NCBI GenBank assembly: GCA_964016885.1
Contig: OZ024742.1
Coordinates: 85,932,001-85,996,000 of the forward strand
Direction of reading: 5' to 3'
Source: Eledone cirrhosa
Taxonomy: Eukaryota
Length of the DNA stretch: 64,000 bases
Shown: positions 1,581 through 44,043 of the stretch, in pieces
Layout: each line of letters opens with the position of its first letter
How positions within the stretch are numbered: position 1 is the first letter of the stretch
The notes under the pieces: model-generated
Databases searched by the model: none
Seen by the model: only the letters and a program-made list of their open reading frames with translations
Told to the model about the DNA's origin: nothing
Program-made: the position numbers and the translations under genes

Positions 1581-4089
1581 AACATATTTAGATATGGAAG
1601 ACGAATATTTATATGTAGATATATGCACATATATGTTGCTTCAAAATAAGAGCTGTAGCCTCACGTAACTGGAATATTCTTTTGGATAATAAAGACTTCA
1701 AAAAGCAGTAACTCAGTCACCAACAGCACCCGGAAAATCATTATGTTACCACTTACACGAGCACTCATGCTTCTGTACTAAGACCATCCGTGTTTTATTA
1801 CAGCATTACACTTTTCTAATTAATTACATTTGCAAACACGCCCTTATTCACACACAGACACACAGACACAAACACCCCCCCCCCCCACACACACACACAC
1901 ATACACACACACATATATATATAACATTCTTATATACATATCTAGAGATGGTAAATACTTTTGTAGTCTTACATTTGCCATCAACAATGATTAAAATACA
2001 CCACTCAAGAATATACGATTTGCAAAAGGAGGTGGCTGAAGTGTAAACCGAGCATGTGAGCTCTGTAGATTTCCAATCGATAGCACTGTACCGGGCTTGT
2101 GTTTCATGATGTTTCTAGAATATAGTAATATGTTGCATTATCATGTGTATCATTGTCAAGTTGAATCTGTATGCGTGACTGCAATTTCAATGACTATGAT
2201 TGTTCTAATATTAAGAATTGCCTTTTTTTTCAAAATAACTAGATATTCACTAATCATCTAATGTCAAATATATTTCTCTCATCACCAATATATTTCCTCT
2301 AAAAAACTATTTATATGTATTAGTGATCAATATCATAGCAATTTCCCTCAGTTCCCACTATTATGTTGTTTTTTTTGTTCGCTAACTGATGACTGAACTG
2401 AACAATTTTAAACTATTGCATTGCATCGGTTTTTCTGCAGGAGGATTGAGGTACTTTTTTAATTCTTACCTTAAAATGTATCCTTTACGATTGTTTCAAA
2501 TAGTTTATATACTATGATATTTTGTATGTTGTCTGCATAATTAATGTTTCTTGGATTCAGAGTAGATATATATTTTCTTCATCAGTGAGGGACACTTTCA
2601 ACAGATTATTGAATATTATTGTAAAACAACTCTGAAAGTATTTCGGATAGATATGTATAAGTGGTTCCCGGAGTATTATTCCTTTTATTATAGGTCGTTA
2701 TTTTATAATTTCCTTTCAAGTTTCACTCTAGATTCTAGAGTTGAGACTAATATGTGATACTCCTGACACGATTCGTACATAATAATAATTGTTTCTATTT
2801 ATTTCGCTATCAAAATGTTTTCTATTCTGGATTTTTGTTTCGCTTAACATTTGTAATGAATAACTTTGGGACGAAATGCTAACCGATCCCTTCAAACAGG
2901 TTTCTGCCTCTCTTAAAACGATGGTTTGTTTGCTATTCTGATAGTACGTGTCGATACAGACAAACTTGCATTTGCGATGCTTCGTTAATTTTTCTCACGT
3001 TTGTTTCCGTTTATGTAGATTCATCGGGAGTGTTACATTTCTTACGTTTCTATATTTTTTCTGTTTACTGTTTATTTGAGTGGCATTTATTGTGGAAACT
3101 GAGAATTTGTATTGACTACAGCGTGAACAGCATAAATTTCTGGGCCTACTGTGATTATAGTGAAGCCTTCGTCTCTTACCATATTTAGAATATCCTTCTA
3201 ACTAAAATAAAATTGTTGAATTTGAGTGTTGTCAGATACAATTTTCGTCATACCACTTAATCAGCTCCAATCAATTTAAGTTCTGTAGATTAGATTAGTT
3301 TGCAATAGCTGAATTTCGTGACATAACTTTTTCTGTTGTTTCTATTCGTGAATATAATTGGCTACAGTGTAACCGTATTGGGCATGTGGTATTTACCATG
3401 ATTTATATTTTTAGTTTGTATATTACGTTTCATTCATATATTATACATTTTTTATATTTTGCCTATTCTGTAGTGTGTTTGCATCTTTAGTTATTTCTAA
3501 ACTATGATTAATCTAATGCAGATACCGTAGGTGTATGTCTAATAGTATCAGCTTTCACGTAAAGTAAGTATAAAAAATATGAATTATAGTTAAAGACCTG
3601 TTGATTATGAGATTTGTTATCGTGCCTCTTTTTTAATATTTAACTTGTTATCACTGGATCTTAATTATAATTCCTTGGAACTTATTTATTGTACCCTTAT
3701 ATCTAACATATCTCTGTTCACCCCTATTCGAATATTCGTTCCTTAATATTGCAAGAAATTATTTCTTTTCTATTCTTATACGACAGTAATAGTTGCAGTA
3801 TCTATTATTTGCTGTGCCTACTAAATATGTAAGGCATAATCGGCAGAGAATAGAATTTGTTTACGTTTGGAATATCGTTGACATGTTTATTAAATATCTT
3901 GGTTACATCTGGAGGATGTGAAGTTTGAATTGAATTCAACGTTAATTAGTGATATCAAAAGTGCATTATAACATTTTAATATGCGTTTATATTTACTCTG
4001 CTCATGTGACATACCTTCCTCTCTAAATGTTATCTTTCATAAATGTTTGCCTTAAGTAGATAATCTGCAAATTATTTCAATGCTTTAGT

Positions 4090-5500
4090 ACAAGGTATAA
4101 CATATATTTTGCCAAAGTCGACAGAGAAAATAGCCCCCAACATTATTGTCCTATCCCTTGCCTTCTCATACAAAATGTTCACATCAATCTTGATTGAGAT
4201 TATCTACGAATTTATGGATGCAAATCATCTATTCCCTATTGAACAGAAAGTTTGTCGCTGTGAGTTAACGAGTGCAAAAACCAACCTCTCATTAGCAGCA
4301 TGATTCTGGTAAAATGTCATAAAAAGTATAGAAATCTGCGTACTTCTTGAATTGACTATAGAAAAGCATTTATCAGTGTTCCCACACATGGATTTCGAAA
4401 GCTTTTGATGTTTTGCAAATTTCCCTAGTAATATCAATCTTCCTGAAATACAACATGACTCTATGTAATACAAACCTATCATTGCAACACAGTGTTGAAA
4501 TTATATATTCCAACATCATAAGTATTAACTGTGATTCCTTTTCTCTTCTGATACTCTGCATTGCTTTCATAACGCTGTCTTTAGCAGTCAGCAAACCAAA
4601 ATATGGCTACACATATACAGTAAAAGTATACATCACCCATTTCATAAGGATGACCTAAAGATGTATGCCAAAGATGACAATGAACTGGAAGGACTGCTGA
4701 AGACTGTGAGGTTGTTCAATCATGAGATTGGACGACAAAACCAGGAAGATTTTGACCTAAAAGCAGATATAAATCACCTGTATCTCGCTAGACAAAATGG
4801 AGATAGAGGAATGATCCATGTAGGGATTACATTCAATCACAAAAGAAATCAGGAAGTTTGCAGAAGAACTGGGAATTCTGATTTTAAAAAAAGCTAATGG
4901 TGATTCTGCAATTAAAGCTGCAAAGAATATCAAAGTGTTGGCAAAGTATGAAAGTGAACAGAGTGCGTGCACTAAATAGGATCAAAGCCCACTGTATGGG
5001 TAGTATGTTATCTGAAGCAGATGTAGATCAAACAATCACTTATCAGTGTCTACGGTGATTTGGGCAAACGGCAGAGAGTGAGAGCTCTAATTTGCCTGCA
5101 AATGACCAGTGCTCCCCAACGTGCAACTTTCAAGCCAATATGATTAGTAATGGAACTGATCAAATGTGACAATGTTGTAGATGAACATGTTGTGATCATA
5201 GAAAACCGAGTTTCAGGCTTCAAGATGTTAGTTGCCGAGCAATATGAAACAAGCCATGATACAGTGGTGCAACACATACACTGGGTAATATGCAGGTTTT
5301 ATGGTATAAAAAGGGAGGAGAAATGGTACAATAATCACACAGATGCAGTAACAGGAATCGAGCACGCAACAATCCTCCTTGATTTCTCTCTGAATACTGA
5401 CAGAACAATCAACGCCAACAGACCTTGTATAATAGTGAAGGACCATGAAGAGAAAACATGTTTCTTAATTAACATGAACATTCCACCAGATCGTCATGTT
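4090..5500 (+). mobile_element. Heavily decayed R4/Dong-type non-LTR retrotransposon (RT to restriction-like endonuclease)
   Basis: Fragments HLFPIEQK, DDLK-like MYAKDDNELEGLL, KADINHLYLARQNGDRG, HIHWVIC, LDFSLNTDRTINANRPCIIV align by eye to the Dong copies at 29-33 kb. Confidence 0.8.
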
Positions 5501-10519: not shown

Positions 10520-10651
10520 GTGAGGTTTTTTTTTACAAAATGAAAAATAACCGAGGTGTCCTACACGAGTGAAAGTATAAAGAAAAAGAGATGAAATCGA
10601 AAATGCAACTGAAGTCTTATTTTTTTTTCAAATATATATATATATTTGGTT

Positions 10652-10689
10652 CCTTTACCGGTTTCGCAGTTCTTCTGCTTTTCAAAAGG
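10652..10689 (-). ncRNA. Minimal type I hammerhead ribozyme motif, U3-A8 core variant (left arm)
   Basis: Reverse complement reads CCTT TTGAAAA GCAG AAGAA CTGC GAAA CCGG TA AAGG. Confidence 0.65.
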
Positions 10690-10759
10690 TGAGTTGAGAT
10701 GGAGGGTCTGTGGTTTTTCTGACATCTGAGAAAAACCACAGACCCTCCATCTCAACTCA

Positions 10760-10797
10760 CCTTTTGAAAAGCAGAAGAACTGCGAAACCGGTAAAGG
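10760..10797 (+). ncRNA. Minimal type I hammerhead ribozyme motif, U3-A8 core variant (right arm)
   Basis: Stem I CCTT/AAGG, core TTGAAAA in place of CTGANGA, stem II GCAG/CTGC, GAAA, palindromic stem III ACCGGT, GUA cleavage triplet. Confidence 0.65.
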
Positions 10798-10900
10798 AAC
10801 CAAATAAATATATATATATTTTTTTAAATATAAGACTTCAGTTGCATTTTCGATTTCATCTCTTTTTCTTTATATATATATATATATATATATATATTTT

Positions 10901-12360: not shown

Positions 12361-12366
12361 AGGAGA

Positions 12367-12545
12367 TAATTGTTTCTACTTTGGCACAAGGCCAGCAATT
12401 ACTCAGTACATTACTGGTACTTTATTTTATCGACCCCGTAAGGATGAAAGGCAAAGTTGACCTCGGCGGGATTTGAACTCAGAATGGAAAGGGCCGTAAC
12501 TATATGCGTCAAACATGGTGTCTGGCCCTCTACCAATATTGCCAA
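12367..12545 (-). mobile_element. tRNA-derived SINE, full length
   Basis: Reverse complement has gagttcaaatcccgccgagg B box, gcctttcatccttacggggtcgataaaataaagtaccag core and gctggccttgtgccaaagtagaaacaatta tail. Confidence 0.9.
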
Positions 12546-15268
12546 TCCAAGGAGATAATGCAATAGAAGAATGAAAGGGTAAATAGATATAAAGTGGTAA
12601 AAGGAATACATAGACAAAATGGAAGGAAAACAACCCTAAATTAAGTTACAGAGCAGATAAGAAAATTAATTTTAAAAAAAAATATTACGGACATATAAGA
12701 ATGTTAGTGAGATAGAGTGGTAGTGAGATAGAGTGTAATAGAAATAATAAAATGATACGACCCTAGAAACATATATAATAAAATAAAGATAAAATACAAT
12801 ATTAAATGGAAAAAAAACAATATCTATATATAACAAAAAAGAAAATATATATTAATAATATTTCCTCCGGCATTGGAATGTGTGTAAACGGTGGAGAAAA
12901 TTCAGTGATATTCTTCTTTTAAAAACCATCGCTTTGAGACGTGTATCTACACATGCACACAATCACGCCCACGCAGTATTCCACACATAACACATACACA
13001 TATATCTACACCTATGCACTGGCATACACATACATCTGCACGTATAAGGCCATACACATACACAAGCATGTATAACGTCTTACAATGAGAATCGTAATGG
13101 AATTATATGTTTTTACACCAACAGCAACAAGAAGGCAACATTTTCACTACATTTCCAAAGACATAGAAGATAGAACACATGCTTTCCCACCAACAATTCT
13201 CTGATACATAGAAAACCAATGAAAGTCAGATCCCGAAGAACAAACTCACTGAAAGCCATGACCAGCATCGGCAGAACATTCTGAGTTCTTCTACACGAAC
13301 ACTTTCAAACTGGCAAGACTTAGAAATACTATCCGACAGATAAAAGTCAATTTTCGCTGAATGTCCAAATTTATATCCACCATAAACTGTAAGTTTATAG
13401 TGGATAAAAGAATATTCTATAGTGGATAGTCACATACTCAATTATGATCTGAGTGGAGATGAAATGCTGAATAGTTAGTCTACGAGGCAACGCTAAAATA
13501 GTCAAACCCTGATCACACTATTGATCTCAAGCAATACATCACTCTTACTGAAGCAGAGTTTAAAGAGCCCTACACAATCCAATTCAGCACCGTATGTCAA
13601 AATGTTTCAAATGAAAAACTACTGAGTAAGTTATATCTATCCTGCTCCGATCAAAAGGTATAAAACGGTATAGGCATGATTGTAATATGTTTTATATAAT
13701 ATAATATATTTACCACTATATTTACATATCGGGGTTCTTTCTTAAGTGATTCCAATCCGACATTCAAGAAACGATATATATATTTATGCTCCATATATGC
13801 CCATACACCGGCATGCTTGACGCTGTATGGGATGGTGTTTGTGCAATATAGTATATGTATCACAATGGATTTCATTAGTCACTCGTTTCATTTCCTTGTT
13901 CTGTTGAGCTGTGTTTGTTTCTGCTCCATGTAATAGGTGTTTTGCTTGCAATGCAACGTTCTGACCATATCTGCCTTCTTCATTACCCATTCTGTCATTC
14001 CATGGTTGAACCTTAAAAACCGTAAGCTATAATCTCACTACATAAAACCCATGGTCACACATTATCTGATCCTTTAAATCTGAGCAATTCTAGAAAACAT
14101 AAATATCAATATCCTTAGAGTGGGTTTAGTAAAATTAATGACGAAACAAATAATGAATCAAACAATCAAACTTCACGAGGTCATTTTGGATTTATAAAAC
14201 AATAAAGCCATCTTTGATACAGAAGATTAATCCCTCGGTGGAACGAAAACATGGTAGCTTAAGCATATGTTTTTCACAGTGTTTTACGTCGAGAAATGTT
14301 TTTATGGAGGACATCATTTCATATGCCCGATGGCATGATTCTCTCCGCAAATAAAACGCCTGACTTGACGTCCTTTGGTCATTTTGAATAATTCTAAGAT
14401 ATAAATGAACATAACATATATCGCTCGACTAGTGAGTCACATATTTTATTGTAATGATGAGGCCATTTTTGTAATGAAAAAAGGAAATACCTATCCTAGA
14501 AGTCAATGGTCTATTTAAATTACTTTCCTAGCATGATGCAATGCATTCACAAAATAGAATGTTTCCTTGTGTTCATATACATGATACTTCAGTAACAATC
14601 AGCGTTTGGTCCACAGACCTTACATTTATATTATAAATAACATTTTCTCCGATTCAAAAGAGAATGGATAACATATATTACGACTGTTTGACAACATACA
14701 AAGGGAAATACACATTTTTGTGTTGTCACAAGCTGTTTAGATATTTTTCCAGAATTTCTTATTTCATGTTTGTAACTGTCATGTCCTAGCTAATAAAACA
14801 ATATGTCAAGGTTAGCACTTATCTATGTTTAAACTGTAATAGTGTTTAATAATAAAGAAACAGAACAAGGAATTATCAAAGTCGCTCGAATGATGTACGG
14901 TCATGGTAGATCAATTACAAGTTAGTAATATCTAGATATAATTATAAAGATATTCATCTTGCAATACCGGGTGTTCAGTAAACACATTCTACGGTAATAA
15001 AAACGCAACTAGCATTATCTTGACATTTTCTGCATTTTCAATAGTATTGAATATATCAAGCATACTGTGGAATTATGACGTGAATATTCCAAAGCGGGCT
15101 AATCTCTATCTAATAGATTGCAACCCAATTTGCCAAATTCTAAATCACACGAGATATTCACAATGTATGCTTTGAACACTATGCAGTAACATACTATTGT
15201 ATTATTATGTTAAACCAACTATTGTGTTTATTAGCGCATGAATATATATAATTGTATATATATATATA

Positions 15269-15520
15269 TTAGAAAGTGAGGTTTTTTTTACAAAATGAAA
15301 AATAACCGAGGTGTCCTACACGAGTGAAAGTATAAAGAAAAAATGATGGAGGGTCTGTGGTCACATCCGATGTGAGAAAAACCACAGACCCTCCATCTCA
15401 ACTCTACTTTTGAAAAGCAGAAGAACTGCGAAACCGGTAAAGAAACCAAATAAATATATATATATATATTTTTAAATAAGACTCCAATTGCATTTTCGAT
15501 TTCATCTTTTTTTCTTTATA
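15269..15520. mobile_element. Second copy of the palindromic Penelope-like element, most of the left arm deleted
   Basis: Same leader ttagaaagtgagg...cgagtgaaag and same right arm as 10513-10874; hammerhead motif retained at 15407-15442 on +; flanked by (TA)n. Confidence 0.8.
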
Positions 15521-18500
15521 TATATATATATTTATTTATTTATTTATTTAATTATTTATGCGCACGCTTGTGTGTATTATATCACCTATCTATCCTGATT
15601 ATCTGATGGGCGTATACCTTTGCGTGTATGTTAGCAGTCGATGTAAACATAATATTCCCCTGCTGGTATGAATGTATTCATAGTAATATTTTCAACAATA
15701 GAGAAACTAAATAAGCTAATCTCCTGCTTAAATATAATGCAAAATCAATATATTATCAAGAATTATGGAACAGAATACTAATTATTTTATAATACAGACC
15801 GAGGTATGATGTTTTCGTATTTTACCATATTTCACCATTAAATATTACTATCAATTCATGTTAATCTGTAATTATTTAGATATTAATTTCTTTATGACAG
15901 TTATTATGATCTATACATTTAATGAAAAACTCTGCTTCTTCAAAGTTCTATTCATTACGAGTTAGACCAACTTAAGTGTGATTTATGTATATTGCTATCT
16001 AGGGACCATGTGATAAATCTACATAAAACACTGTTTTGTAATATTTCTTGTTCAGTTGGTATTACATACATTTATAAAGTATTTTTGTATATAAAGTACA
16101 TAGTAATTGTATATATGTTGTTGACGCCTTACTTCTGAAATATGAAATATTATGTATAATTGCATAGTTGTTAATGCTTTTCCGAATTTCAGTAATAAAT
16201 TATATAGGGTATTTATTTTCACCAAGGTTAAATAGTGAATCAAGCATATAATGAATAATAATTAATCAAAAGAACTTACCTTTCTTTGGAAGATAATACA
16301 TTTACGTTTAAATGGAAAAAAATATATAGTGACATTGTTCATTCAATATAACAATATTCGTTTTTGGTTGAGCCTGTAGCATTTTGTCTCGCGACCATAG
16401 TTCTGCTCATTGCTATCAGATGGAGTTGTTTGCCCGCAGAAGCAATTACCGCGAGGTGGAGTGGCGTTTGCAGCACGTCATCTTCGCCCTCCTCCAGGGC
16501 AATGACGGCGGAGATACAGCTTTGTGTACACTTACTAATTAGAAAATAATAGTTAGATTAAATGAATATATACTTACACACACACATATGCACATATATG
16601 ATTATATATGTGCATATGTGTCTGTAGACAAGCAAAACAACCAGCGATATAAAAGAACAGAGTCGTGAATATCCTTTCATAACTTTAATAACTTTCCAGG
16701 CTAAAACATTTATGTTTCATTTCCCCCACGCCCGTATTGTAACTTCTTATATTGCCAAATATACAATCTGATTTCAACGTATGTTAATTTACCAACAGTA
16801 TTTTCTAAAAATAAAAAAAATTTCCCTTAATATTCTCAACAAACATAATTGTTTGTTATTTCTTAGTCTTTAACAACTTCATATTATTTACGAACGATGT
16901 TTTGTCACGACTACAAGTTTAACTTCATAAATATTCGGTATACCATCTGGAAAACCATTGTAGATGAACAAGTAATCGAATCGTAAATATATTTCTATTA
17001 TTAGTACCATTTCAAACGGCTATTTATATAATAATAAATACCAATTCATATTTCCAAACAATAAATATTGAATACTGTTTCGAAAGGAAGAAAGGTATAT
17101 AAGTCGTTTTTAGTTATAGAATATCAATCGACTACAGAAGATATTGGCAGGTATGGCTGTCCATGTATTTAGAGTATACCTCCCTTTTCTCTGTTTGTGA
17201 AAGAAATAACATTTCAGATCAATTATGAATGCAGATGATTGATCTTTAGTAACATTTCCTTTTCCTAGAACATCGTTACTTTTTGTTGTCATTTTTATAT
17301 TTTATATTTATATCTACATTAAAAATATTCTAATATTTAATGATCACGTGGGATATATACAAAAAAATGTTTATTGTATAATTTCATACGGTTGATCTAA
17401 AACATGTGACAGGTTATTTCAAATGATATAGTCTCAAATATATTTGTATACGTTATTTGCCGGAATTATAGTTATTTAATAATTATCTTAGTTGTTTAAA
17501 TGAAGGTTATGCTTTCACCATTAAAACCAGCACCATATCCTCAATATATATTCTTAGATGGATAATCCTTGTTGGAATCATTCACGTTGGGTTGTCGTGT
17601 AGTACAGATAAACTGTACACTCGTGTGTCATTTAAACACATATTATCGTTTTCATGCCTTCTTAATTCATATTTACATACTCTTATATATAAATGATTAT
17701 TTCTTTCCTGTTCTACTATTACTTAAATTCAATATTATCTCAACCCAGTGTTACTTATGTGTTTTATACTTATTATGTATGAGTAAGTTTTTATATATAA
17801 TGTGGCCTTTCAGACCAAGGACACGTTTGGGTCTGACCCATTAGGGAACTCAGGAAATATATTTAGATTATCTTTGATATAATCTGCAAGATCTCTTTAG
17901 ATTATCAATGGAATATTCTTATATACTGAAATATATTTTTATTAATACATATATTGCATAAACTTTCTCCGGAAGATGAATAATCATTGACCTTGTCGAT
18001 AGAACAAAGCTTATATGTTTTGTACTCGTGAATACGTATGAGAAAGCACTAATATCGTTACTTGAGATTGCCTTCAGATAAACGAATGTAAGTTGTATGA
18101 AACGTTATATTAAGTATAGAATGCGGTGTATGCTATATCAAATGAGATTGAATATATTAATTTGCATATGAATTTAATTATCTGAAAACACGTTTGTTAT
18201 ACATCCAAGAGACAACATTATTTGCAGGTAATCAATGATGTGCTTTGATCTATGAATTTATTATTAAATTGCAATACTGTTTATTTTAACTTGCCATCAT
18301 AACTTCATTATCAGTTTCATCTCTATAATTTTATTTTTTTCTGTACTATAGAATATGGATAGGATCTAGCATTGATAGTATGGATATGTGCATAGTTGGT
18401 TTGCCATTACATATTTGTAAGCATATATTTAAAAAATGATTATTATGGCACTTATTTCTATAGGGATTCCAACCATTTTCAAAAGTATATTATTTTGTGG

Positions 18501-25200: not shown

Positions 25201-25385
25201 ATTATTGTTTCTACTTTTGGCACAAGGCCAGCAATTAACCCAGTGTATTACTGGTACTTTATTTTATCGACCGTGAGGATGAAAGGCAAAGTCAACCTCG
25301 GCGGGATTTGAACTCAGACCATAAATGGCCGTAATTATTTGCTGCGAAGCATGGCGTCCGACCCTCTTCCTATACTGCCAATTCA
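25201..25385 (-). mobile_element. tRNA-derived SINE, full length
   Basis: Same B box, core and tail as 12367-12545. Confidence 0.9.
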
Positions 25386-25499
25386 CTAAAATATAATGGC
25401 GTCACGAATAAAGGCTGGTGTTATTTGCTGTTTACAGCACTCAGCATTTGCTGGAGAGAGACGCAGCAGTGTGTCCATGTAGGAACTGAAATTTGCTAA

Positions 25500-27378: not shown

Positions 27379-27405
27379 TATTATTATTAGTATTAGTATT
27401 ATTAT

Positions 27406-27516
27406 GAGTTCAAATCCCGCCCAGGTTAACTTTAACTTTCATCATTACGGGGCCGATAAAATAAAGTACCAGTAATACACTGGCATAATTGCTGGCCTTG
27501 TTCCAAAAGTAGAAAT
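27406..27516 (+). mobile_element. SINE, 5'-truncated at the B box
   Basis: gagttcaaatcccgccc...gctggccttgttccaaaagtagaaat followed by TAA/ATT repeats. Confidence 0.88.
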
Positions 27517-27537
27517 AATAATAATTATTATTATTAT

Positions 27538-40124: not shown

Positions 40125-40147
40125 TATTATTATTATTATTAGTAGTA

Positions 40148-40200
40148 GTACCTGTAATGCACTGGGTAATTGCTGGCCTTGTGCCTGAATTGGAAACAAT
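40148..40200 (+). mobile_element. SINE 3' fragment
   Basis: gtacctgtaatgcactgggtaattgctggccttgtgcctgaattggaaacaat then (TAT)n. Confidence 0.8.
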
Positions 40201-40212
40201 TATTATTATTAT

Positions 40213-43115
40213 TGTTCTCTGAGTTTCAATCATTGACGTTATTTAACTGGAAAGTTCGTTGAAATGAATATCAAGCCGCTCCCTGCAGCCTCAGATGTTC
40301 AGGACGTACCGGAGGGTTCTTGCTGTCCCCAGCAAGCAGGCCTTTTGAAGTGTTCCAAAAAGCGGTGCTGGACTAATTTTCTTTCACCATCGTTGGAAAC
40401 TCTTTGAGAGAGTTCCCGGTACGCCTATGACAATCGGCACTACTCCGATTTCATGGCAGTTCCAAATCCTTTTTGCCTCCCACTTTAAGTCCTGGTATCG
40501 GTTAATTTTCTCCTTCTCCTTTTCTTGACCTCTCGTGTCAACTGGACAGGCTACATCTACAATCAGACGGGATCATTTTCCTTGTCCAAAACCACCAGGT
40601 CACGCCTATTGTGTTCCAGTTTCTTATCCGTCTCTATCCTAAAATCCCATAGCACCTTCACCTGATCGTTTTCTGTCACCGACTCTGCCTTATGCTCATA
40701 CCACTTCTCAGAATGTCGTAAATTGTTTACTTTGCATAGGTACCAGTGGATAACCTTGTCCATCACATCATGTTTCCAGCCTTTATAATGAGTCTGGGCT
40801 AGGTGTTTACACTCGGATACAATGTGAGCCACAGTCTCCTCCCTCTCTCCACAGATCCTACACAGGGGGCTAGCCTGCTCCTTGTAAATATGGTGTTTTA
40901 CCCACTTCGTTTTGAGTGCCTGTTCTTGTGCAGCCATTAGCATTCCTTCTGTAGCCTTTGTAAGGTCTCCTCTTTTCAACCAGTTCCATGTCTGTGCATC
41001 TCTGAATTCAGTTTTCTCAAAGAAGGTACTATGAAGGGATTTTTCATGAAGGTTGCTCTTCCTCCTTGTTGCTATTTCCTCCTTGGACATCCGCTGGTCT
41101 ATTGTTCTCTCCTTCAGTACAATTGTGAGCATTAGCTCCCTACGGTCGGTCATGTATTCGTGTAGGTTGGTTTTCTCCATCTGAACACAGTCCTCTATGC
41201 TGATAAGACCTCTTCCACTGCAGTATAATGGTCAGGGGTATCAGGGCAAGGACACACACCAGAGGAGACAGACTATCTCCCTTGAAGATACCACTCTTGA
41301 TCTTCCCGCCTCCCAAGGATTCCACACCCGATGTTAATTCTGTTTCCCAGGACCTCATACTTTTGCTCAACAACTGTTTGATGTTATCTGCCACCTTGAA
41401 GATCTCTAGGCTTTTGGTTATCCTAGAATGAGGTACCATGTCGAATGCCTTTTTGTAGTCTATCCATCCCATGGCAAGACCGGTGTGTCTCCTCTTTCAA
41501 TTCCTCATTACCATTTTATCAATATGTAGCTGGTCTTTTGTACCACGGGAGTTCTTTCGGCATCCTTTCTGTTCATCCAGTAACAAGTTGTTTGTGTGTA
41601 GGTGATGGTAGATTTCCTCAGACACAATGCTTATTAAGAGTTTCCACATTACGGATAGACATGTGATAGGTCTACAGTTGGTATCATCATTACCCTTGGT
41701 TCGGTCTGTCATTATCAGAACTGTGGTAACTTTAGTTTTTTGGCCTGCCCTTTAAGAGTTTCAACTGTGATGCTTAAATCAGTTTGTTGGTGTGCTTGTT
41801 CACTAATCTTCTTTTGTACCGTCTCAATCCACACCGTCTGATTATTATTTTCAACATCCTGCTCCCATATTCCTCTCCAGAATGTCTTAGTCTGTTCCGC
41901 TTCAGGGATCAAGTCGTTGCATCTTTCTTTCCATTCAAGCTGCCCAAACAGCATCTTCTGGTTGTTGTCAAACATGTGTTCTGTCTATAATGACTGACTC
42001 TGCTCTCATACCGCCTAATTTTTGCACTCTTTGCTACAATGCGTTCCTTCAGTTCCTCTATGATAATATTTAGCTTTTTGTCCTGGTTTTGTACTTTATT
42101 TCCAGTCTATTTTTAATGTCTATGCTTTGTAGTGTCCCACTCAGTAGAGACTCAAGGTTTCCAATGTCATTTCTCATTTCCCTGATTTGACCATTCGGGC
42201 GTTTTTCCACCAAGGTTCTGATCTTTCTTGTTTGTTTTTTCCTCTCGTTTTTATGCCAAGTAATTTCCTCACCGCATTTGCTGTTGCTTTGAGGATATTG
42301 TTGCATTGGTTAAGGTTTCTCGCCTCAAGGTATGGGATGAATTTGTTTACCTTAGCTGTTGTTTCTTTTAACTTTTTTCCAGTTTACAAATCTTAGGTTC
42401 ATAGGTTTCCCACTATCGTTTTTCATTTCATCTACCATATAGTTTAGGATATCAACCAAATTTTGTCCTAGCCCGTCAGCATTCATTTCCTCAATGGCAG
42501 GATCTTTGTTTCAGGTGTTATTTATGTCAGCATTCAGATCATTGTCTGCTTCGGATGCTTCCTTCGGTCTCTCAACCTCTTCACCTTCATTTCCCACTGT
42601 CTCGATTGCCTGGCATACTCCACTATCCATTTCCAACCTAATCTCTCTGGTGAGTTCCTCCAGTTCCAGCTCGCTTATCCATCCATTAGTTCTTATTACC
42701 CGAGCCTGCCCGGCCAATATTTGTTCATCTAATTTAAATAGACCAATCTCGTTCCAGATGTTATGCATCCGTTTCCTATAGCCTTTTTCCTTGGGGTTAC
42801 TCTTCAGGTAACATAGCATAACAGTTCTATTCAATTCTTTCGTCTAGTTGGTTCTTGTCACTTTCCTTCTTCTTCTTCCTCCAACACCAGCAGTATTTGG
42901 ATGACAGCCACGTCCCTGCTGCTGGGCCAGGGAGCACAGGCTGAGTGAGAGTCTGTCGCAATACGTTCCTATCTCCTCTTCACCGTTATTCGAACTGTTT
43001 AGGTTCGACATTTAAACACTCATATCGAGGATTGGTGAATGTATGGTTACATAATCGCCGGTGATTTCATCACCTCCCGGTGATTTTAGCGTGGCACCAT
43101 CACGCTGTAGACGAA
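40213..43115 (-). mobile_element. R4/Dong family A, copy 3, 5'-complete with internal deletion in RT
   Basis: ATG at 43011, N-terminal NRTVMLCY...GYRKRMHNIW, EQKGC, WIDYKKAFDMVPH, GIFKGDSLSP, then a jump at about 41220 to the post-thumb region, CCHC knuckle and endonuclease. Confidence 0.93.
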
Positions 43116-43399
43116 CATAGATAAATAAACAAATAAATAGATAAAAACTTTAAAAAACAAACATAAGTTTCATTGTAATGTTTGAATGTCTGACTTAGTT
43201 TTTTTTTTATTGTTTTTTCCTTTGCGTTTTTCGTTTTTCAAGGCCAGTAAGATCAGTTACTAGTGTTTTTGTTGCTGCTGTGGATAAGGGAAGTAGGGGT
43301 TGTTGTGTTCAAAACATTTGAAAGTTGTGTTTGTTGTTGCGTTTGCTTCTGTCTGTGTTCTGTTCTATAATTTTTCGACTTGTTGCTTATCATTGTTAT

Positions 43400-43490
43400 T
43401 TTGCCTTTCATCCTTACGTGGCCGACAAAACAAAGCACCAGCAACACACCTGGACAATTGCTGGCCCCGTGCCGAAAGCAGAAACAATTA
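43400..43490 (+). mobile_element. SINE core and tail fragment with clustered T>C substitutions
   Basis: Aligns base by base to the other SINE copies, with 10 T>C changes between 43422 and 43479. Confidence 0.88.
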
Positions 43491-43499
43491 TTATTATTA

Positions 43500-44042
43500 A
43501 ATTAAAGTTTTGATTTGACATCGTTTAACCTAAGCATTTTCAGAGAGTTTAGAGATACTACAATAATAATTATTTAGGTGTTGTTGTTGGTGTTGTTGGT
43601 GTTTGACCGGGTCACTAACCCAGTCTATTTATATATTTTGATACCTTCCTCGCTTCTTTTCATGTGTAGCGGCACTACTACCATCCCTCTCTTAACAGGA
43701 GGTAGTGAGGAAATAGTGGTGGTAGCGATGATGCAGTGGTGGCGGTGATGATGGGATACCAGTACTATAGTGATGGTGGTTGTTTGTATTTGGCTAGATT
43801 TTTTTATGTTAGTGGTGATGGTGGCGGTGGCGGCGGTGGTGGTGTTGGTGGTGAAGTTATTTGGCTGTTCTTTTTTAGCCATTTCCCTTTCTGACTATAA
43901 CATTTCTGATACGAAATTAAATATTAAATATTGGACCCCTATGCCATAATGTGATGCGTTATCACTTCCTGAGTGTTAAGACTGATATCATATGTTCCAT
44001 TTGTAATAAGAATTATTCTATCACAATTGTTTTAAATATGAA
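43500..44042 (-). repeat. Unclassified repeat X, copy 2
   Basis: Homologous blocks and same terminus as 33100-33957; short Thr-rich ORF 43882-43625 on -; abuts (ATT)n at 44044-44097. Confidence 0.7.
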
Positions 44043-44043
44043 A

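Follow-up and report, generated by a model that had tools for sequence, protein, structure and literature searches.

A-to-I editing is treated as a non-heritable change of RNA. A SINE copy in the genome of the octopus Eledone cirrhosa raises the question of whether such edits can enter inherited sequence. The copy lies at 43400..43490 of a 64,000-nucleotide stretch of contig OZ024742.1 (the window). A preliminary description of this stretch noted ten clustered T>C differences from other SINEs, read them as ADAR editing of a minus-strand transcript carrying the SINE in antisense, and proposed that the edited RNA had been reverse transcribed and integrated, most simply as 5′ flank of the adjacent LINE.

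The window SINE copy

The copy (43400..43490, plus strand) represents the 3′ half of a SINE of the tRNA type; a SINE alignment and an empty site in a sister locus (L048) place it antisense to the LINE, within a run of (ATT)n in that element's 5′ UTR. The left copy of its ATT-rich target site lies at 43392..43399 (plus strand); later SINE insertions hit the same spot in sister copies, in tandem and with target duplications. Its (ATT)n tail and the right target-site copy (43487..43499, plus strand) are unchanged in sequence. An Rfam scan of the window gave no matches.

For comparison, 213 SINE copies from the window and the fetched loci were aligned, 86 candidates were set aside, and the commonest letter in each column of the other 127, all free copies, served as the yardstick; these 127 came from locus flanks and from the matches of one genome search, and are not a random sample. 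In the scored columns of the window copy 11 of 25 T read C, while A>G is absent at 26 A, C>T and G>A do not occur, and the two transversions, at 43419 and 43451, have hardly any counterpart in other copies. Taking 2.5% per T, as in free copies, the T>C count has a binomial probability of 8e-12. The changed positions are 43422, 43426, 43431, 43436, 43442, 43445, 43450, 43455, 43467, 43468 and 43479, so that the ten originally listed are all confirmed and one, 43450, had been missed. On the minus strand, which is that of the LINE RNA, alignment counts and sharing among LINE-borne copies define the cluster (43422..43479) as 11 A>G changes. The statement that every TpA in the span is converted holds within 43422-43479, with the qualification that 43445 is a TpA only where the SINE haplotype has A at 43446, as in 35 of 118 free copies; the TpA immediately 5′ of the span and those of the ATT tail are unchanged.

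Other SINEs of the window served as comparators. Those at 12366..12549 and 25201..25386 (both minus strand) are free and unedited, and the free copy at 27401..27522 (plus strand) has in common only the C matching 43422, as the preliminary description had it. An unedited SINE 3′ fragment (40147..40213, plus strand) has an ATT tail into which the 3′ end of the LINE is inserted. Elsewhere in the window, a 300-base palindrome at 10576-10874, 93% self-complementary, is related to 15242-15545.

Of 43 LINE-borne copies, spread over many contigs, 38-42 have any given one of the 11 C residues, as against 1-7 of about 110 free copies, so the earlier count of nine private changes does not stand. The T core of the SINE has 249,168 exact genomic copies. 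Because of this sharing among LINE copies and the abundance of the T core, we regard the cluster as a fixed feature of the LINE lineage, T as ancestral and an assembly artefact as not credible; the C alleles, on their many contigs, are surrounded by ordinary private decay. DNA reads of two other samples add weak evidence, with C at 43479 in 16 of 33 plus-mate reads from one and 18 of 24 from the other; these cannot be assigned to this locus, and reads of free SINEs dominate among them.

The carrier LINE and its lineage

The host element (40214..44043, minus strand) is a single-ORF non-LTR retrotransposon, nearly full-length though decayed and bordered on each side by (ATT)n; Pfam, tblastn and its ends identify it. 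Its 5′ UTR of about 1 kb (43012..44043, minus strand) is delimited by homology to genome copies, which extends to 44044, and we infer a start codon at 43011. About 65 bases found at the 5′ end of other copies (the longer ends of L010, L013 and L024) are missing from the window copy. The Pfam models RVT_1 and zf-RVT both score below cut-off on the fragments in the window; a 1237-aa homologue scores above cut-off for RVT_1, and in tblastn it matches the minus strand. Together, the Pfam results and this homologue support a predicted reverse transcriptase with a C-terminal zinc knuckle. A motif in the ORF, read by eye, we take to be that of a restriction-like endonuclease. Dong elements insert into (TAA)n repeats, and the (ATT)n at both ends of the window and sister copies agrees with this habit. 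The label R4/Dong-like is based on anatomy and recall rather than on a tree, and no named R4/Dong element was among the 120 homologues listed. The same part of the window (33971-61141) also holds at least five Tx1/L1-like LINE copies, all on one strand and in part nested with a further LINE of the restriction-endonuclease type.

A search of the animal's own genome gave dozens of matches at 86-94% identity, whose homology extends out of the LINE ORF, across the SINE piece and as far as 44044. The SINE piece therefore sits inside the 5′ UTR, and not in a 5′ flank as first proposed. When loci were picked solely by the UTR beyond the SINE, 28 of 30 had the cluster. Among sister copies L048 retains an empty (ATT)n site and L044 has a separate, unedited SINE insertion; SINEs in the T state at the window insertion site are later insertions. 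Editing is not obligatory, since the antisense SINE of L018, L021 and L037 is inherited yet unedited.

LINE copies diverge from the column majority by a median of 4.3%. The LINE tree, of 53 elements after 2 of 55 were dropped for low coverage, is star-like and weakly supported; it sets L141, L044 and L048 apart (0.93) and does not unite as one clade the copies having a second SINE (below). The order of events is accordingly read from shared junctions. An unedited donor with the same insertion was sought and not found among the 53 LINE copies.

Private editing specific to this insertion is rejected, the C residues being shared across the LINE lineage. What stands of the original interpretation, and is well supported, is A-to-I hyper-editing of a minus-strand RNA with an antisense SINE, followed by reverse transcription; what does not stand is that editing occurred at this insertion. 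The cluster was already in a probable master LINE that had captured the SINE piece, and from which the window locus, like dozens of others, descends. The preliminary description had allowed that many copies with the same C residues would reveal a SINE subfamily instead. Such copies do exist, and yet all those examined lie at one site of one LINE, so they do not form a SINE subfamily.

Other hyper-mutated SINE insertions

The genome was scanned for the exact triple-C core motif, and all 48 matches (control, 0) were examined. The window unit at its one LINE site accounts for 25; the other 23, with other patterns, comprise 14 heavily changed copies (9-20 T>C), one inverted duplicate of one of these, and eight light copies that may be background (crude expectation about 12). 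Outside the window lineage all-C triples outnumber mixed ones by 17 to 5, where independent mutation predicts 0.3 to about 1. A second scan used a motif from elsewhere in the SINE and gave 43 matches, of which 30 were fetched and divided into 17 heavy and 13 light copies. Heavy copies lie inside the LINE UTR or the small retroposon family described below in 14 of 17 cases and light copies in 0 of 13 (P 5e-6), two of the heavy copies, L198 and L199, being tandem units of one locus.

Eleven separate insertions together have 148 T>C changes (including up to three motif-selected sites per copy), against 18 C>T, the next class, and two A>G. Counted by junctions there are 14 separate insertions or clusters, or 13 without the older L195: the window unit, the second unit, the L141 type, L177, L126/L130, L133/L135, L124, the H3 group, L140, L137, L138, L123, L179 and L195. 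The genome-wide motif scans yield at least 13 separate hyper-mutated SINE insertions, with differing site patterns and mostly inside retroposons.

Several belong to the same LINE family. The second unit is a longer SINE beside the first, with 13 shared T>C in its 5′ half at 10 loci; the 20 matches to it that follow are free SINEs without the cluster. L070 and L109 have six and five additional T>C, 10 of these 11 at TpA. A sister lineage (L141 and nine further focal copies) shows another site pattern, L177 has 12 T>C and no other change, and L126 and L130 represent a further edited sub-lineage. Heavy copies without an identified carrier number three of the 14 non-lineage copies in the first scan (L137, L138 and L123) and three of 17 in the second (L182, which is L137, L179 and L195).

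Some loci deserve separate description. At L126:2900-3110 and L130:2920-3110 the (ATT)n beside edited SINEs has turned into ATC-rich repeats, and editing may in this way create new microsatellite motifs. L137 (oriented 3500-4600; G000:C2 near 101,556,000-101,557,000) has two T>C-changed SINEs and an intervening AGT/AGC repeat over about 1 kb, with no identified carrier, and is a candidate retrocopy of an edited transcript. At L179 (G000:C1 near 356,650,000) three SINEs in alternating orientation, with TA/CA repeats, have changes on one strand and lie upstream of the 5′ end of the small retroposon; this is a candidate 5′ transduction of edited read-through RNA. At the (ATT)n sites of the LINE UTR as many as eight SINE pieces stand in tandem, every one of them in antisense orientation relative to the LINE (L198, L190, L013).

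Strand of the changes and confinement to predicted duplex

If the changes arose in carrier RNA they should read A>G on the transcribed strand, and they do so in the LINE, Penelope-like and small retroposon carriers. In the LINE, this is the ORF strand. At L140 the SINE is antisense, both downstream of a GIY-YIG ORF and in an inverted copy of the same end, and the changes are again A>G on the ORF strand. L140 (G000:C3 near 122,634,000) is a Penelope-like GIY-YIG fragment with an inverted duplicated end, an arrangement made by Penelope-like elements, and its two SINE copies differ in C pattern. The third carrier is a non-coding retroposon of about 600 bases (24 loci fetched). Its visible copies share a fixed 3′ end and vary at the 5′ end, which sets its RNA strand, and on that strand the changes are A>G; for the H3 group we infer the carrier strand from contiguity with this element. 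The small retroposon (L143-L165, in G000) is young, high-copy and 96-97% alike. It is found within (CATA)n repeats, and at its 5′ end it is similar to the HDV-like ribozymes of RTE elements.

Inverted SINE pairs give evidence on the substrate. When the arms of L133, L135, L123 and L179 are read as SINEs, one has T>C and the other A>G, which means that both arms are changed on one genomic strand. L133 and L135 are one insertion, with overlapping but differing patterns and a truncated partner arm. The full arm of L133 is changed at 17 of 25 sites in its paired part versus 1 of 17 in the unpaired part, and that of L135 at 12 of 27 versus 1 of 15; the predicted fold of L133 has 115 pairs, 37 of them G-U. 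This confinement to the paired part of the predicted hairpin fits the editing of an RNA hairpin, and is unlike deamination of cDNA at SINE insertion.

Such deamination is the alternative that survives best. During SINE insertion, adenine in the cDNA of the RNA:DNA hybrid would be deaminated, the changes would date from that insertion, and LINE RNA would not be involved. ADAR acts on RNA:DNA hybrids, the polarity is strong (48 copies of the triple T>C motif versus one of the matching sense-strand A>G motif), and L137 contains a full-length SINE with target duplications outside any identified carrier. Under this process, however, the only change expected is T>C on the sense strand of the SINE, yet inverted pairs include sense arms that have 11-18 A>G, and these changes keep to the predicted stem of the RNA. 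Stand-alone SINEs, moreover, are the light class, none of whose 13 copies lies in a carrier, and descendants of one insertion differ by the extra T>C of L070 and L109. The 48-to-1 polarity may have a simpler source in the polarity of the targets, as every one of the 51 SINE copies that were counted within the UTR of the LINE is antisense to it. We therefore consider this alternative very unlikely, and prefer editing of the carrier RNA.

Neighbour bias

Excluding motif-selected sites, the fraction of adenosines changed in the 11 insertions depends on the 5′ neighbour: U 36/47, A 55/87, C 17/66 and G 10/41. A second set of five further copies, treated likewise, gives U 21/35, A 28/39, C 8/29 and G 4/23, and the sense arms of L133 and L123 give U 13/15, A 13/19, C 3/6 and G 0/8. 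Free copies have a milder gradient (U 3.5%, A 2.7%, C 2.4%, G 1.3%) without the step between A and C, and in the second SINE cluster few edits have a 5′ U (1 of 4). The 3′ neighbour (U 10/40, A 40/85, C 30/53, G 38/63) is not sharply diagnostic. The preference for 5′ U or A over C or G matches ADAR, as far as its neighbour rule is given in the part of PMC8586724 used here and as upstream G is depleted at octopus hyper-edited sites, where repeats dominate, in the corresponding part of PMC5625713. The genome encodes an ADAR2 that is 95% identical to that of Octopus vulgaris; the ADAR2-like gene and further genes with adenosine deaminase domains are at G000:C6 13,644,405-13,646,174, on C1 and on C25.

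Carrier-strand A>G clusters might also come from a process other than ADAR, for instance misincorporation by reverse transcriptase, or some other adenine mutator that acts where templates are structured. An enzyme cannot be named from genomic sequence, and the 3′ pattern leaves room for such a source. The changes nevertheless occur only in tracts that derive from SINEs or are self-complementary; the LINE body is free of them, its shared changes outside SINEs having no strand bias (T>C 37/490, A>G 19/294), and the 5′ bias is that of ADAR. This source of the clusters is, in our judgement, most improbable.

If one rare event had instead spread by gene conversion or template switching among SINEs, the recurrence would be illusory. 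Chimeras of adjacent SINE units occur (L093, L065, L016 and L023), and the same hot-spot sites are common to many events. Against this, site patterns vary by insertion and cover SINE parts that are missing from or unchanged in the window unit (some of the extra T>C of L070 fall where the first unit cannot be the donor), a T>C donor cannot yield A>G clusters in sense arms, and a cause for the first event would still be needed; we judge such spread extremely improbable. The C residues common to dozens of copies might, finally, point to a SINE subfamily that has diverged, to chance or to an assembly artefact; this is scarcely credible given the single LINE site of all examined sharers, the 249,168 copies that keep the T core, the 17-to-5 excess of all-C triples, and C alleles on many contigs amid private decay.

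Proposed mechanism

The reading that we favour, and hold to be very probably correct on the sequence patterns above, is that ADAR hyper-edits retroposon RNA, that reverse transcription fixes the edits, and that a master copy amplifies them, sometimes over several rounds. It would proceed as follows. A SINE entered the (ATT)n run of a LINE copy, as the empty site shows. In the LINE transcript the antisense SINE would pair with a sense SINE. A complementary partner for the window SINE was not found within the LINE, and the closest SINEs of opposite strand that the window offers lie at distances of 18 and 31 kb; the fragment at 40147..40213, having the same orientation, cannot pair with the UTR fragment. 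Since the window unit thus has no partner inside the LINE, its partner would be a SINE upstream in a read-through transcript or SINE RNA in trans; at other loci a cis partner is present. ADAR would then deaminate about 40-70% of the adenosines in the duplex, as direction, strand, stem confinement and neighbour bias suggest, and the LINE's reverse transcription in the germ line would, by established base pairing, read inosine as G. The edited copy founded a lineage, as the sharing of the cluster shows, and later SINE captures and later rounds, in which editing would again be the cause, added the further clusters seen as nested patterns.

Relation to known systems

Hyper-editing of the A-to-G kind was described in two avian retroviruses (Felder 1994; Hajjar and Linial 1995, as cited in the part of PMC8586724 used here). 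As there, A-to-I edits of a retroelement RNA would be made permanent through reverse transcription; unlike there, the octopus case concerns non-LTR retroposons in an animal germ line, is natural, recurs in several carrier families, is inherited through master lineages, and is layered. An inverted repeat reportedly figures in the avian case.

Octopus has the most hyper-edited sites in a table of PMC5625713. The retroposon clusters resemble the hyper-edited inverted-SINE transcripts treated in that part of the work in their inverted SINE substrate, clustering, depletion of 5′ G and duplex confinement, and differ from those edits, which are in RNA only, by being in genomic DNA. They also resemble the ‘DNA editing’ by APOBEC, whose one-way clusters are fossilised in retroelement copies; in the relevant part of PMC2873906 APOBEC clusters are in retroelement DNA, as G>A from cytidine deamination of cDNA, and ADAR clusters in RNA traces, whereas the octopus changes are A>G on the RNA strand and tied to duplex RNA.

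The role of ADAR in SINE subfamily evolution is left open in the portion of PMC4982230 concerned with it. Dong-R4 elements are abundant and recently active in Octopus vulgaris according to PMC13282606, in which the word ‘editing’ does not occur, and the part of PMC5974252 consulted has nothing about fixation of edits. Our searches of open papers, confined to their main texts, brought up no account of ADAR clusters becoming fixed in the non-LTR retroposons of a genome; the precedents in print that we found all concern retroviruses.

Significance

The footprint predicted for fixed hyper-editing is seen many times in this genome, together with internal controls in the form of an empty site, unedited late insertions, and paired versus unpaired arms, and its value lies less in the window copy than in this genome-wide controlled set. 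The question becomes testable from genomes alone. Edits of this kind would be a source of the diagnostic changes of ‘subfamilies’ and of new microsatellite motifs. They call for caution in the dating of repeats and in calling editing from RNA-seq, as reads from changed genomic copies mimic edited reads.

A wider and more doubtful proposal, which we put forward tentatively from the same sequence patterns, is that ADAR may be a recurrent and cumulative germ-line mutagen of octopus retroposons. Antisense SINEs in carrier RNA would be hyper-edited, often through trans pairing with abundant SINE RNA, and edited copies would be favoured as masters since weaker pairing lets the LINE RNA escape silencing by double-stranded RNA. 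If so, the genome would be a datable archive of past ADAR specificity. For the biology of the octopus, the clusters imply hyper-editing in the germ line and a route from RNA editing into inherited sequence.
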